Source: Asterionella formosa (lineage: Eukaryota). Taken from it: 64,000 bases of DNA. Positions 17,293 through 24,626 of the stretch are shown here, piece by piece (the stretch's first letter is position 1; each line of letters begins with the position of its first letter). The stretch covers positions 1 through 64,000 of the forward strand of contig NKIB01012750.1 of the NCBI GenBank assembly GCA_002256025.1. The letters run 5' to 3'. A model generated the notes under the pieces. That model searched no databases. It saw only the letters and a list, made by a program, of their open reading frames with translations, and was not told the DNA's origin. A program made the translations under genes and the position numbers.

Positions 17293-19032
17293 TTACACAG
17301 GAATGGCCATAAGATCATATTGAAAATTCTCATTCCAATTCCCCGTTGTGTCTCGGAGCATTGATACCATAGCCTTATGGTATCCAGATGGAATATAATG
17401 ATCATCAACCAAGGTACGTGAAAATTCAATGGATTGAAAAAACTCACAGGGAGTGTATGTACCCATATATCCAGAACTACTGCCATCTCGAAATAAATGA
17501 AGACAGGTTCCCGGTGGGATCAAAACAATGGGAAGTCGATCTTTTGGAACCTTGTTAAAATAAGGCACTTCATTTTTTTGCATACCTACTTTGACCCAAT
17601 CCATTATTCGAGCCTTTGGTATTTCAAAAAACACAGTTTCATTTAAGAAATCAAGAAATAGGTCGACATCGACCAATCCCTTTGGTGTCCAATCATAACT
17701 CATTATATCCAAAAACAAGTTTGCCATGGATGCTCCACTCATACGTGGAACAACATCGGCATCACTTATCACAGTTATTATGTATTCCTTCGTCGATACA
17801 CTCAATTCGAGATTTAGCAAGGCAGGACAACCAAAACCAATACTATTGGCATGAATCCAGGGATAGTTGTTAAATTCCATTGCAGCAATGGCAGCAGCAC
17901 CTGCTCCCAAGGAATGTCCAACCAATGTGAGCCTAATGGAATCACGTTGAGAAACATTCAATAAGTGATGGAGGGTATCAATGTGTTGTTTGACAAGGAA
18001 TTGACCCGAAGCTTCTATCCCACCATGAACTTTGCCATTCCGATAATCTTTTGGAATTAACAATCCATCGGATAAAGCATCCCCTAATTCCTTGGTCCCC
18101 CGAACAACAAAAAGTATTTCAAGTTCACGTGATGGCTTGTTAGTAGTTTTTTGCCATGGTATTAGAGGTGGCAGTGGTTGTTGCTGGGTGGAGGATTCTT
18201 TTTTGAGTGCTAGAAAGTGGGCTGGTTCACCAGGAAAGCCTTCAGTCGTGGCATATATCAATTCATGACTGTGATTGCTAAATCGGTGTATGCCATGTTG
18301 AATATCTTCCAACGTCTTGGCATATGCCAATTGAGACAAGTACAAGGCATTGTGCAATTCATGAAGTGTTTTGACTTCGTCGAGTACCTTGTGATATCGA
18401 TGATATCGACGTTTCCAACTTGGTGTAGTACGTTCTTCTTCTCTTTCCACAAAGTAATAAATGGAAAGAGGATTGAATCGTTCCAAAGATACTTCATCCA
18501 AGACGGACGCCTTGAATTGTAAGAAACACTCTTGTAAGTTTGTAGTGAAAAGTTCCCACAACTGTTGCATCGAACGTCGAGTACGAACATTGGTAGCAGA
18601 GAATTGTCGTGCCGTGAATATGAGATGTTCTAAAGAAGTATGGTCGGAGGAATCCTCATTCATTACCATATTTGTGACAGATTGTGCCATGGAAAGTAAG
18701 GAAGGGCCGTTGTCGTTCGATGTACTTGGTTCGGATCCAAAGAGTTGGTCAAACTGGTCTGCTGGTGAAGCATCCTCGTTCCCCTTTGAGAATTGATTGA
18801 ATACATTCGTTTCTAGAAATTTCTTCCCCATGCCGACTTGCTCATCCAGCCAAGTTCCGAAGACATCAAAGACTGTGGCGTCATTTTCGTTGTGGAAATG
18901 ACGTGTGTCGCCAGTTGCAGCGTCGACCTCCGCTTCCTGTTGTGCGTTCGAGGGCAAGCACAGCAACAGGAATGGTACAAGGATGTGCATGACTACCAGC
19001 ACCACAAATAGTCTGTAACTCAGTGATCTCAT
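17293..19032 (-). CDS. Secreted or membrane class-3 lipase (DAG-lipase-like alpha/beta hydrolase)
   Basis: Hydrophobic N-terminus (start ATG 19032 or 18990); motifs VVRGT, VHGGI, nucleophile LVGHSLGAG, DVVPR and C-terminal DDHYI. Confidence 0.88.
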   Translation of the reverse strand: MRSLSYRLFVVLVVMHILVPFLLLCLPSNAQQEAEVDAATGDTRHFHNENDATVFDVFGTWLDEQVGMGKKFLETNVFNQFSKGNEDASPADQFDQLFGSEPSTSNDNGPSLLSMAQSVTNMVMNEDSSDHTSLEHLIFTARQFSATNVRTRRSMQQLWELFTTNLQECFLQFKASVLDEVSLERFNPLSIYYFVEREEERTTPSWKRRYHRYHKVLDEVKTLHELHNALYLSQLAYAKTLEDIQHGIHRFSNHSHELIYATTEGFPGEPAHFLALKKESSTQQQPLPPLIPWQKTTNKPSRELEILFVVRGTKELGDALSDGLLIPKDYRNGKVHGGIEASGQFLVKQHIDTLHHLLNVSQRDSIRLTLVGHSLGAGAAAIAAMEFNNYPWIHANSIGFGCPALLNLELSVSTKEYIITVISDADVVPRMSGASMANLFLDIMSYDWTPKGLVDVDLFLDFLNETVFFEIPKARIMDWVKVGMQKNEVPYFNKVPKDRLPIVLIPPGTCLHLFRDGSSSGYMGTYTPCEFFQSIEFSRTLVDDHYIPSGYHKAMVSMLRDTTGNWNENFQYDLMAIPV

Positions 19033-19259
19033 TGCGACTGGGCCTCTTTCTAGAATAGAGAGTATGATTTGACCATCAAATGCAGCTTTGTCCCTGCGAT
19101 ACACTCACATCTCGAGAATCTTGCAAGAAAGCAATAATAATGGTAAAGATTTAGCAGAGAAATTCCGATCCAAAAATTATGTTTCAATCGCACTTGATCT
19201 TTTCATATTACAACAAGGAGGTGTAGTCTACCGTACACAGTTCCGGTATTGCTGCGATG

Positions 19260-19496: not shown

Positions 19497-19785
19497 CTGC
19501 AATGTGTGAGTCTTGAGGTAGCATTTGATTACAATAAGGGATATTATAGGATGCTCCACATTGTAGTAGGTCCCTTAAGATACATGTAGTGGCTTTGATC
19601 ATTTTGAGGTCCCAAACTGCCATTACGCAAGAAAGTACCCATGATATGTGAGTCTTCAGGTAGTCTTTTATTTCAATCAGTGGTATGATAGGATGCTCCA
19701 TTTTGTAGTAGGTCCTTTAAGAACTTCCATGCAGTGGCTTTGATCCTTTGGATGCCCCCAACCGCCATTAGGAGTAACTTTCCTT
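19497..19785. repeat. Degenerate tandem duplication (~142 bp period) of the mannosidase/GnT-II gene 3' end
   Basis: GTGAGTCTT-AGGTAG, AGGATGCTCCA, TTGTAGTAGGTCC and AGTGGCTTTGATC each occur twice; AGGATGCTCCA is at 19548 and 19690. Confidence 0.8.
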
Positions 19786-22700
19786 ACAACTGGATTTCCA
19801 ACCATGGGGTAATAGCTGGTACCAGTAAAGTTTTGAGGGAGCTGATATTCCTTCATCTTTTTCTGCTTGATTTTGGATATCGACTTGCCATGCATACCCT
19901 CAAGTCCTATGTGTTTGACCAGCATCCTTGTTGAGGTGATTACCATTGATGGTAAGAGCCTCTTCTGCATTAAATGCACAAGGGACCAGTCCCAATTGTA
20001 ATCATCAACGACACAAAAATCCTTGGCATTGGTTTGAATCTTGGCCCATGTGTTCCTTGTTAACACCATTGGACCACTAACAAAGGGCCGTACGAACCAC
20101 CCATCCTGGCGCATCCCAAGGTCAGGCCGTGATTGACCGTCGGTTGGATCCAATGTGATGCCAAAGAGGTGATCTTTGTCAATCCCGTTAGTTATAATGT
20201 CCAAAGCTGTCAGGATGTTTTTGTAGATATTATTGCCCACGGTATAATCCTCTTCCATGAACAAAAAGGCCTCCGCTTTTATGTCCAATGAAAAAACGGA
20301 CTTGAGCATCCACGTGAAATGATGCTTACAGCAAGTGATTTCCCAAGTTCGGGGATTCTTGTACAAATCACCTTCATAGCCGATATTCAGAGTTGGATCG
20401 TTTCCAGGAAAAGAATGAGGATTATCATGACAGGAAAAATTGTGAACAAGTTGCATCACAATGAATTCCTCCTTGAGAGTCTCGACATATTCCATCATTT
20501 CTGGAACATGCCCATCATGCGAGAATATAAGAGGAACACGAGCGCGATCAAAGTCAGAGGCTCGAATAGAAGCGATCACCTGTTTCAGATAATCAACCCG
20601 TTTAAACACCATGAAGACAAAAGGGACAATGGGAGAAGTATCATCAATTGAAGCGACCTTCACGGTGATATTTGTGTAAGATACCTCCTTCGCACTTCTG
20701 AGAGCACGCTTGTCAAGGGTTTTATTTCTGTTTTGAAATTTCGGAAAAATATGAGCAGCATTGATCAATTTGTTCGATTTCGAAAATTTGTTAGCGGCGT
20801 TGGCCGGTTTTATCTCATCGTACCTTCGCCTTGCAGTCTTGCTTGATACTTCACCTGTGACTGCTGCGGCGGACTCGAAAGCAAGCTTCCCAAATGACTC
20901 TAGAGGGTGATTCAATTCATCCCACATGCGACGGCAAAGTGGTGTAACGTCGAATTCTCCATTGATGTTGAACCCTTCATATTCAAGGACGAGTCGAAGC
21001 TTTGTCCGTGTTGGCACATTGTCCATTACTCCATGACCAAGTCCACGCTCGTCGTCATGACTAAGTCGGCGATCCAACCAAACGTCAATGGCACCATTCT
21101 CCAAAGAAGCCGTTCCCTGTGCATGCTCACTAATGATTGTCATTCTCATGGATCCATCTTGTATTGAAGCTAGCGTCGGCATGGGGAAAACTTGGGACTG
21201 GATAGGCATATCTGAACGAAAATAATGTGTATCAAAGTTAAAACCATTCAAGTCAGTATGAAAAATACCATCGTTTTTAATATCCGCCGAGAATCGAACA
21301 ACCCACTCCTCCTCTGTCGTTTGAAGATAAGTTTCAAAAATAAAATCCAAAACATGAGCTGAATTGCCAAAGTCATCGGATACTCTTTTTTCCACCAGTG
21401 TTCGTTTCCAATCGCCATCATCGATCGACCATCCATCGCTTGTTACTTGAGGATCTATCAAATGGCGTTTATTTAGTATTCCAGGAAAGAACAAATAAGC
21501 TCCACCTCTGTTGACCTTCCATACTTGCCATGATTCCTTGATTGGATATGTCAGGAGACCTGCTTCAAATTGATAAAGATTTGCCTTGTTTGCGACTGGT
21601 CCAGGATGTTCACATGGAGAAAATACCTTGGCATTTGAATGCCCTTGTACGTGTATAGATCCACATGTTTGAGGCACCTCCAATGGATTGTAGACAGTGA
21701 CACCTTGAGAGAAATTTCCGCAAAGGTTTTGCGCAAGTCCACGAGGTGCATCAGACTGCCAACACGGCTGCAAGTCATTATTACTGTCGCCGAGGATCTT
21801 CGTTATCATCCAATCTTGCGTCTGGTGTATGGCGGTATGAATCCGTTTGGCATAATCAAGAACCACATTATTCCTGGCCGTGCCAGTGACACCATCATGA
21901 TGTTGAAAGAGAGAAAGGGCACGTCGAGGCTGCTGTAATTCTTTGGTTGATGCTCCCAACGTATCTGCTGCAAATAATACTCGTTCTAATTTCCGATCAA
22001 GTGCCTTATCAAACACACGAGATGTAAAGTATCCGGACCAATAATCTTGATCTCGATCAGCATAGGTAAAAAATGATCCCTTTAGAATCGGTACATCAAA
22101 GGTACCCATTACAGCATGAAAATAGTCGGAAAGTGTCCCAAATTGCGCGGTAACCCCAGGGACATTGGCGTTAATGTACTGGAATATTTTTTCATAATTG
22201 GAATATTGTGCATCTGCTTCCTCCATGCTACCATATCGAAAGTCATCTCCTAAGGGTGACATAACTACACGGCTTTTATACAAAGAAGATTTTTTTTGCC
22301 ATTGGTCCAATAGCAGCATACTCCGTTCATGAACATTGATCTCAGTAATAGGTTGTGGTTGTTGGTGCCAAGGACACGCCTGATGTAAATTTCTGTCAAG
22401 CATCCGGGAAAAGTCAAATTGACAACACACAGACGGATCTGGTCCACACGTATGTGGCGCGTCGTAGCTATAAAAGGGCATGAGATGTGTAAAAATATCA
22501 TGATTTCCAGTATCATCCCAAGTTTGTCTGAGGAGTAGGTTGAGATAACAACCAAATGGTATTTAGGCACTATGTATAAATAGTACATTTAGAACGAACA
22601 CAAAAAATTAAGACACGTACCGCCACATGAATTCCAAGTGTTGACGTTGTGCCAATTCTTTCTTAATGGCATAATGGACCCGTTGAATCAACATGCCTTG

Positions 22701-23612
22701 GAATCCAAATTTTTGCAGTAAAAATGCCATGGTGGGTGAATATCCAAATGGATCAATCGACCAGCCAAACTTTGGAACATACTGTGACCCAAACGTCTCC
22801 CTAATCCAATCAAGACCTTCTTCTAGCTGTACTTGCATGGCATATAGTTGCGTGTTGGCTTCATCTGTTTGTACCCATCCTCCAGTCACAAATTCCAATT
22901 GTTTCCGTTGTAGCAATTGCTTGACTTGTTCTTGTACTTCAGACGATTGTTCCCGGTACCACCATTCAAAGTAGGATATTTCTGCCCAAATGAATGTCCG
23001 CTTTGGATTCTTTAACAAGGATTGAATGACGGTGGTAAGAATTTCTTTCGTTTGTTGTTGAAAGTACTGATCAAACGTTTTGAGCCATCCTGGATCACAG
23101 TGAGAATGCGGAATGACGTAAATAGTCATGGGTTCGTCTTTTGAATATGACTTAGGTAATACATCATATCCTTGTTTCCAAACTCCTCCGTCTGGATTGT
23201 CGAAGGGCAGCTGTCGATTCAACTGACGCATGTCAACAATTTGAGTCTCAGATTTGCTCAAAACTGGTGGCGGTGCCGCTACTTCGGCTTCCATGGGTTG
23301 ATGGACTGGAATTTCCTCCCTCGTGGTTAAGGCAGTACTCCATGATGTCGAACTTGGTCCTCCATGGAAAAGAGTTGTATGTTTAAAAAGGATCAAGGGA
23401 ACTAGAAACCAAACGGATACACCAATCAATAGCAACGCAATGAAAATGGTTTGCTGATGATTACGATGTCGCCTTGAGCGGTTCTTGTTGTCAGGGGCAC
23501 CTCGTTGTCTCCTCCACGTCGTCGTCGTAGCAGCTGTAGTGATGGGCACAAAACCAGAACGGCGCTGATTCAGAGAACTTGACGAGGAATGATGATGCGA
23601 AGAAGCCTTCAT
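19677..23612 (-). CDS. Golgi alpha-mannosidase II (GH38) fused to a C-terminal GnT-II/MGAT2-like (GT16) domain; exons 23612-22621 and 22527-19677
   Basis: Type II TM. GH38 motifs VIPHSHCDPGW, WSIDPFG, LGDDFRY and QHHDGVTGT. A 93-bp GT-AG intron gives FMWR|QTWD (1280 aa spliced). The C-terminus has LIFSHD, KHHFTW, FMEEDY, FCVVDDYNWDWSL, HIGLEGMH and NGGWGHPKD. Confidence 0.92.
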
Positions 23613-23954
23613 GATGGTGGATGAAAGAAGTGCTTTAAAAGAAATATCGTAAGCGTGCTGACGAAGTCAGTTTCGGTTCTTGTCATTACCGGTATGTGAC
23701 AGAAAATATGTGATGCTATTATTAATGCGCGCCCTTCGAAATTAAAAAATATTATTGCATGATGTACTATAATATATTCCAGTATATAACATAAATTGTT
23801 GTACTCATAATCCAAAAATTTGTGTTTGTGTTAACCAAATTTGGTAGGAGTACCAGGTACCAGGTACCAGGTTCCAGTACCAGGGTAACTCTGGTTCTCA
23901 CCTCAAGTCCGCTGCAACCTGCTCATGTAGTCTGGGGCAGCAGCTTACAATCAA

Positions 23955-24626
23955 TGATATCATGTCATTGTTGGACAGTGTTCTGCCCCATCTACCAATT
24001 GGATCACATGAGTGGGAATGTGCAGCATCTAAACATAATGAAAATTTTCCAGACAAGGAACAAACTGGAACGTCAATTTGGCAAAAGTTTGTACAACTAA
24101 ATAAAGTAAAAAATCAACTGGTGACCCAACATGTCCTGCTGAGATCTGATATGCTAAGCAAGTATTCCAAAAAATAGAGGAAAGAGCAGATGCTACTCAT
24201 GAATTTGATTCTACAGACCTTGGGATAGAAGATGGTGACAATGTTCATGATGAATTCATGGTACTACTTGAGGACAGTCAAGAAGCGTTTCAAATGTCAG
24301 AAACGTATGCTGCAATTTCTTCTGATTCCATTGGAGCAACTCCTGCTGTTTCCGCTGGAGCAACTTTTGCTATATCTGCTAGTGCAAGATTTCCTTGTCC
24401 TATGGTACCTTCTTGGCTCAGGCATAAACCTGTGTCGAACAATCTCAACAAAATATTGGCTCTAGTTTCAACACAATTGCTTCAAAAATTCGACAAGAAC
24501 GATAATAATCAGTTGCAGTTGCAGTTACAGTTACAGTTACAGTTACAGAAACAGAAACAGAAACAGCAAAAGGAACAGCCTGATGAACATGATGATGATG
24601 TCAATCATATTGACCGACACTGGTGA
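23955..24626 (+). pseudogene. Decayed Myb/SANT-like ORF of the LPIG..EW / TGDPxCP type, possibly transposon-associated
   Basis: LLDSVLPHLPIGSHEW...SIWQKFVQL, then a frameshift to STGDPTCPAEI*YAK; low-complexity (CAGTTA/CAGAAA)n tail at ~24510-24568. Confidence 0.5.

Follow-up and report, generated by a model that had tools for sequence, protein, structure and literature searches.

An expressed Asterionella formosa gene joins a predicted Golgi α-mannosidase II to a predicted GnT-II through a linker of two lengths

Does the diatom Asterionella formosa carry two consecutive enzymes of N-glycan maturation in one polypeptide, and if so, are they coupled by a closed channel or by a tether? The question is raised by a gene on the minus strand (23612-19677) of contig NKIB01012750.1 (GenBank assembly GCA_002256025.1), of which positions 1 to 64,000 were analysed and are referred to here as the window. 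The original prediction, read from the letters of the window, described this gene as a fusion of Golgi α-mannosidase II (Man II) and GnT-II (MGAT2) with one intron and possible channeling of the glycan. We found that the fusion gene is real and transcribed. It begins with an ATG at 23612, and the frame is open to a TGA at 19677. Exon 1 (22621-23612) contains the ATG and encodes the cytoplasmic tail, a type II transmembrane (TM) segment, the stem, and the first catalytic half of a GH38 domain including the HSHCD and IDPFG motifs. Intron 1 (22528-22620) is 93 nt long, has GT..CAG ends and in-frame stops, and is removed at the RNA joint 22527/22621. Exon 2 (20824-22527) encodes the remaining GH38 part (GDDF, HHD, and the middle and C-terminal domains) and the start of the linker, and exon 3 (19677-20727) encodes the linker end, a GT16 domain, and the stop codon. 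The ATG, the 93-nt intron, the open frame, the type II topology, and all ten motifs named in the original prediction were found as predicted, and the expected intron 1 was spliced in all four RNA runs examined. The one-intron model nevertheless missed a second intron (20823-20728; 96 nt, GT..AG) inside the linker. Intron 2 is in frame without a stop, and its RNA joint is 20727/20824. When it is left unspliced, the reading after intron 1 is stop-free through both domains and yields a protein of 1280 aa. The single TM segment (23388-23450; approximately residues 55-75) shows a hydropathy maximum of 2.8. No other hydropathy window exceeded 1.5 in the 1280-aa protein and no signal peptide was present later in the chain, which confirms that the C-terminal part has no membrane anchor or signal of its own.

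The RNA listing showed that 17 of 19 runs hold part of the stretch and that eight hold at least half of its words. Four runs (X1, X4, X5, and X7) were examined, all as assembled contigs and not as long reads, while runs X12-X19, which have small word shares, were left out. One polyA contig of 3867 nt from run X5 covers 19539-23594 with both introns removed, so that a single RNA contig crosses the linker region and spans both domains, in line with the single polypeptide predicted. RNA depth was zero or near zero in the flanking bins around the gene, which argues against DNA contamination. It might be argued that two adjacent genes were read as one or joined during assembly, since a related Fragilaria crotonensis locus is annotated in pieces (140 + 534 aa). 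However, the frame contains neither a stop nor a second TM segment or signal peptide, the junction is crossed by the RNA contig, open reading frames (ORFs) of 1248 and 1280 aa occur on contigs of 4.1-4.3 kb, and the architecture recurs in most homologs as described below. The probability of such an artefact is thus negligible.

The N-terminal part was assigned as Golgi Man II. Pfam profiles GH38N, Alpha-mann_mid, GH38C, and MGAT2 all scored over their curated cut-offs, with an E value of 3.7e-75 for GH38N in the 1248-aa form, and the GH38 domain (20901-23132; residues 161-873) matched Drosophila Golgi Man II (dGMII) by phmmer with an E value of 4.5e-170. Residue correspondences to dGMII and to human GnT-II were read off the alignments by hand. 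In the phmmer alignment, the dGMII Zn ligands H90/D92/D204/H471/D472 correspond to H171/D173/D287/H541/D542, and the acid/base D341 corresponds to D426. The anchor residues Y267, H273, P298, and W299 and the holding R343 are described as Golgi-specific and absent from lysosomal GH38 enzymes in the relevant part of PMC13204073; they correspond to Y350/H356/P383/W384 and R428. Thus, the residues for Zn binding and catalysis (nucleophile and acid/base) as well as those of the holding and anchor sites are the same as in dGMII. The GH38 part scored 570 bits to dGMII versus 157 bits to 1o7d_A, a lysosomal chain that covers no more than 298 aa. In an alignment of 53 rows (A1), D341, R343, and H471 were kept in all rows, and Y267 varied conservatively (Y 27, F 23, gap 3). 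With the catalytic and anchor residues that were checked all intact, the assignment to Golgi Man II made in the original prediction is upheld, and GnT-I-dependent trimming of two mannoses and Golgi residence are predicted for this half. The diatom GH38 differs from dGMII in that its C-terminal part (20901-21910) is shorter by ~240 aa and in that the chain carries GT16 in addition. Residues 568-732 align with dGMII 498-785, and the tail past the last aligned block is ~26 aa versus 147 aa. This shortening is common to all the full-length fusions aligned.

The C-terminal part is predicted to be a GnT-II/MGAT2-type GT16, which would transfer β1,2-GlcNAc to the α1,6-mannose. The GT16 domain (19728-20630) comprises residues 964-1264 of the 1280-aa form, with EED, DDYNWDW, and H1203. 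The C-terminal 340 aa matched Pfam MGAT2 with an E value of 4.8e-37 and 128.3 bits against a cut-off of 27 bits; the E value was 2.3e-35 in the 1248-aa form, and the MGAT2 scores ranged from 122.8 to 128.3 bits. The GH38 plus MGAT2 profile composition that had been expected was therefore obtained well above the cut-offs. Human GnT-II (5vcm) matched the domain with an E value of 1.6e-15. E259-E260-D261 of human GnT-II correspond to E1089-D1091, D342-W348 (with the base D347) to D1172-W1178, and H374 to H1203. Passages of PMC12507850 and PMC7014118 assign D347 as the catalytic base and EED/His as the metal site of the human enzyme. In alignment A1, all 53 rows have R127, D154, E259, and E260, and 42 have D347 against 11 gaps, whereas D343 varied conservatively (D 39, E 12, gap 2). 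Gaps aside, the remaining active-site columns of both domains were invariant or almost so. Compared with the human structures 5vcm, 5vcr, and 5vcs, the GT-A fold, EED, DDYNWDW with D347, H374, and NGGWG are alike, whereas the diatom GT16 has no TM segment or stem of its own. It had been anticipated that a GnT-II in such a position would be easily overlooked, and the proteins of Mayamaea and Seminavis indeed appear at NCBI as 'alpha-mannosidase 2'.

The architecture recurs among homologs. A search with residues 560-949 of the exon 2+3 product gave 71 proteins of 521-1661 aa. GH38 was followed by GT16 in 65 of them, including the window's own cluster, and six contained GT16 only. Among named organisms, the fusion occurs in Mayamaea, Nitzschia inconspicua, Nitzschia sp., Seminavis, and Bacillariaceae, and also in the centric Ditylum brightwellii and in a cluster that includes Fragilaria crotonensis proteins. 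The matches from Mayamaea, N. inconspicua, and Seminavis share the Pfam set of the window protein. Trees were built by FastTree with Shimodaira-Hasegawa-like support after removal of most animal rows and of 22 rows, 21 for their short coverage and one for its long span. The window protein grouped in a clade with Mayamaea, Nitzschia, Seminavis, and P0200 with support of 99 for GT16 and 90 for GH38.

The original prediction made its novelty conditional on the architecture not having been described, and section 3.2.2 of a 2025 review (PMC12507850) already describes the same fusion as a bifunctional Man II/GnT II of P. tricornutum (Phatr3_52248, 1453 aa) with homologs in F. cylindrus, N. inconspicua, S. 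robusta, Bacillariophyceae sp., and M. pseudoterrestris. The window protein agrees with the diatom Man II/GnT II in its type II topology, in the order of an N-terminal Man II and a C-terminal GnT II within one ORF, in the single transcript, in its orthology, and in the catalytic residues. P0200 (1453 aa), which was taken as the P. tricornutum protein by its length alone, is 64% identical in GH38 and 50% identical in GT16. The window protein is shorter than the P. tricornutum type (1248/1280 versus 1453 aa), and its linker has 59 or 91 aa versus 168 aa in P0010, a member of the P0200 cluster. No further paper on the fusion was found in a literature search that covered few subscription journals. 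Both activities are mentioned in PMC4135232 and PMC7140410, the passages of which do not mention a fusion, and no GnT II passage was found in PMC7864949.

Some diatoms, Epithemia and Attheya among others, have stand-alone proteins with a TM segment and GT16 (P0050, P0105, P0053, P0070, P0091, P0056, P0089, and P0094), which nest among the fused proteins in the GT16 tree. This nesting suggests duplication and fission. The contigs carrying P0053, P0070, and P0111 are equally long (1,357,660), and these may perhaps form a paralog cluster. Another protein, P0345 (1481 aa), in which MGAT2 is matched over three stretches alongside a pectinacetylesterase domain, is possibly a gene-model artefact.

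How would the two halves work together? We consider it probable that the protein is a bifunctional Golgi Man II/GnT-II of the diatom type, in which one type II polypeptide tethers the two enzymes without forming a closed channel. This reading is built on one ORF, one RNA contig, the identity of the domains, the conserved active-site residues, and one anchor, and the reaction steps of GH38 and GT16 are deduced from the residues shared with dGMII and human GnT-II. A luminal GH38 domain would be anchored by the N-terminal tail and TM segment, and behind it GT16 would be tethered by a flexible linker. GnT-I would first make GlcNAcMan5GlcNAc2. The anchor site of GH38 would then hold the GlcNAc-β1,2-Man arm while the Zn/Asp287/Asp426 center removes two mannoses. 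The glycoprotein would be released and rebind at the GT16 domain, which would move GlcNAc from UDP-GlcNAc onto the α1,6-mannose with EED/Mn and with Asp1177 as the base. The fusion would supply the anchorless GT16 with Golgi localization, 1:1 stoichiometry, and proximity to Man II. The terminal GlcNAcs would probably be trimmed later by hexosaminidases, as postulated in PMC12507850. Taken together, these features suggest that the diatom may be able to make biantennary complex N-glycans.

Several points weigh against this reading. Assembled contigs can neither prove a single transcript nor give isoform levels, topology is the sole basis on which Golgi localization is predicted, and biochemical data for the diatom Man II/GnT II are still missing according to PMC12507850. 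The GT16 of the homolog model shares no more than 25-26% identity with human GnT-II. In the alignment with 5vcm, the loop-helix-loop (181-224) is present but ~15 residues shorter and the TEHN segment is missing, and EEDY replaces the human EEDH (Y in 52 of the 53 rows of A1). Because of these changes, the acceptor specificity could differ. In addition, the 69 glycans of the P. tricornutum glycoproteome, as given in the part of PMC8678454 that concerns them, comprise 68 high-mannose and one hybrid type and no biantennary type. PNGase F would miss core-fucosylated forms, and the authors of that study acknowledge its limits.

It is conceivable from these points that the Man II half is normal while the GT16 half has an altered acceptor, for example diatom-specific glycans, or has little GnT-II activity, so that biantennary N-glycans are not made. 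The shortened loop-helix-loop and the missing TEHN segment would fit this, as would the lack of GlcNAc2Man3 among the 69 P. tricornutum glycans (PMC8678454). The diatom-type GT16 clade (support 99) also lies apart from the animal GnT-II rows, and the stand-alone TM+GT16 paralogs of some diatoms suggest other uses. However, the donor-binding EED, R127, and D154 and the acceptor motif DDYNWDW with D347 are nearly invariant, and GT16 has been kept beside Man II in 65 of the 71 matches, as would suit the enzyme that acts next in the pathway. Moreover, hexosaminidase trimming can hide the product, as discussed in PMC12507850. We regard an altered GT16 as unlikely.

The inter-domain linker (20631-20900) consists of ~91 aa when intron 2 is retained or ~59 aa when it is spliced, and contains no TM segment. 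Linker lengths range from 25 to 168 aa among 64 simple fusions, with a median of 70 for all 65, and the linker sequence is not conserved. A TM-like segment was found in none of the 64 linkers. Since the window protein exceeds 1200 aa, a homolog with 70% identity (P0245) was modeled by AlphaFold2 in its place. The model, with a mean predicted local distance difference test score (pLDDT) of 82.6 and a predicted template modeling score (pTM) of 0.67, showed two well-folded domains and a linker with pLDDT below 50. Foldseek matched it to dGMII and to human GnT-II (E value of 1.5e-18 to 5vcs). Docking of one domain to the other scored 0.00 in two runs in which the alignment was unused, and this result was counted neither for nor against binding.

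These data bear on the proposal that the two domains dock at a fixed interface and hand the glycan over without release. Such channeling would be attractive because the two steps are consecutive, the domain order is kept in most homologs, and mammalian MGAT2 and MAN2A2 interact in the Golgi, where they associate non-covalently as separate proteins (PMC6453868, in its account of this pair). However, the linkers vary widely and are not conserved, and the length differs by 32 aa within this very gene. In the P0245 model, which is a weak test, the linker is disordered and the pTM is 0.67. Incisomonas has the reverse order, and other domains lie between GH38 and GT16 in P0064 and P0252. Furthermore, Man II and GnT-II bind the same GlcNAc-β1,2-Man-α1,3-Man 'recognition arm', as described for the two enzymes in PMC7014118; if both sites need this arm, the first site has to let go of the glycan before the second can take it up. 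The channeling raised in the original prediction is thus argued against by the unconserved linker and the common recognition arm. Tight channeling is doubtful and we judge it very unlikely, and the linker would act as a tether for co-localization rather than as a channel.

The linker could also be a place where a Golgi protease cuts a polyprotein and frees a soluble GnT-II. The basic linker of the window protein contains RRR and KRALR, which we take to be similar to processing sites of the dibasic or RxL type. A conserved site of this kind was not found, however: RxL occurs in 24, RxxR in 21, and KR/RR in 29 of the 64 linkers, and the freed GT16 would be anchorless. Cleavage in the linker appears to have a very slight chance, if anything slighter than that of channeling.

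We return to the tether and to its two lengths. Intron 2 was spliced in three of the four RNA runs (X1, X4, and X5) and was retained in contigs of X1 (depth of 117 versus 58 for the spliced form) and X4 (30 versus 20), although transcript levels are poorly reflected by contig depth. In run X7, a contig extends 65 nt into intron 2 and no spliced joint was seen. The products are 1248 aa (linker of ~59 aa, spliced) and 1280 aa (linker of ~91 aa, retained). Four proteins of 1248 aa and four of 1280 aa were found among the 15 members listed of the 16 in the window's protein cluster, and they differ by exactly the 32 residues of intron 2. A pair of 952 and 920 aa in the same cluster comes from contigs that differ by 96 nt. 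All five intron-retaining proteins carry F924, whereas the window has I924 owing to a variant at 20750 inside intron 2. Run X5, which lacks the variants present in the other three runs, gave the spliced form only. Since retention was seen only with the variant allele and X5 contains only the spliced form, 1248 aa is the supported product for the allele of the window. The 20750 variant lies 2 nt from a putative branch point, CTCAT.

Intron 2 retention may depend on the allele or on the condition. Intron 2 could be a regulated switch, in which a tether of 59 or 91 residues tunes mono- versus bi-antennary (later paucimannose) N-glycans. This is improbable, because retention was seen only with the variant allele and intron retention is common in diatoms; passages of PMC5859163 describe it as prominent in P. 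tricornutum. When intron 2 was shuffled 20,000 times, 9.2% of the trials were stop-free, and its open frame is thus only mildly unusual. Fourteen pairwise comparisons in six other clusters, a weak test, gave no comparable pair, with internal gaps of only 3 aa and 1 aa. It is most likely that the two tether lengths arise from leaky or allele-dependent splicing that is tolerated in a freely varying segment. An in-frame linker intron with two forms is not mentioned in the Man II/GnT II section of PMC12507850.

The same pair of families also occurs in the opposite order. Incisomonas marina, a non-diatom stramenopile, has a protein of 1377 aa (P0366) arranged as TM-GT16-GH38, and GT16 also precedes GH38 in P0273. 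Since P0366 was modeled from transcripts and the representative of its cluster consists of just the 491-aa GT16 part, this fusion in Incisomonas should be confirmed. A literature search combining Incisomonas with glycosyltransferase and mannosidase found no paper. In IMG/VR, L001:4794-12182 encodes a polyprotein of 2462 aa with GT16 upstream of GH38 together with GT2, GT10, GT49, and LicD, and lies next to phosphonate genes and a nucleotide-sugar transporter. L006-L027 likewise encode polyproteins (1700-2900 aa) in which GT16 precedes GH38. A metagenome scan with P0064 gave ORFs with GT16 before GH38 in 18 of 59 loci and did not return the contig of P0064 itself, and viral contigs searched with the diatom GT16 domain gave no match. 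Thus, P0366 and L001 combine both Pfam families of the window protein in a single chain, but with GT16 first. In the GH38 tree, the Incisomonas and viral rows form a clade separate from diatoms; in the GT16 tree, the same holds for the viral rows and for P0127, a GT16-bearing protein of the P0366 cluster. P0308 combines a diatom-like GH38 with a following GT16 of the viral/Incisomonas clade. A sulfotransferase or LicD domain lies between a diatom-like GH38 and GT16 in P0252 and P0064, and LicD, sulfotransferase, GT61, or GT7 domains surround a diatom-like GT16 in P0064, P0252, P0259, and P0369. As seen in these sequences, stramenopiles appear to have fused the enzyme pair in both orders, and large DNA viruses appear to have built it into multi-enzyme chains.

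The fusion itself will not surprise specialists in microalgal glycosylation. Ditylum, the reversed order in Incisomonas, the viral polyproteins, and the linker isoforms are modest additions to PMC12507850. The spread over a centric diatom, a reverse fusion, and viral polyproteins suggests repeated selection for coupling both steps, which mammals achieve by the non-covalent complexes of Man II and GnT-II described in PMC6453868. The compact, RNA-supported member of 1248 aa is a handy reagent for testing biantennary N-glycan synthesis in diatoms and a possible one-gene Man II plus GnT-II module for glyco-engineering.

The surroundings of the gene are of other kinds. By Pfam, no N-glycan pathway family was found in nine other long ORFs of the window or in the downstream lipase ORF; the Pfam neighbors include a lipase, a Sec7 protein, a ribosomal S4-family protein, and an M16 peptidase. 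The downstream gene (17293-19104, minus strand) has a Lipase_3 domain (E value of 1.2e-14) and is unrelated. Directly downstream of the stop codon, in tandem and within the RNA-covered region, lies a degenerate copy (19502-19625, minus strand) of the 3' end of the fusion gene (19770-19644), with 103 of 124 bases identical. Short tandem repeats occur 5' of the gene at 23850-23884 (GTACCAG x5) and 24510-24578 (CAGTTA/CAGAAA), and contigs of run X1 have loose ends at 23750-23850, which perhaps reflect strain differences.

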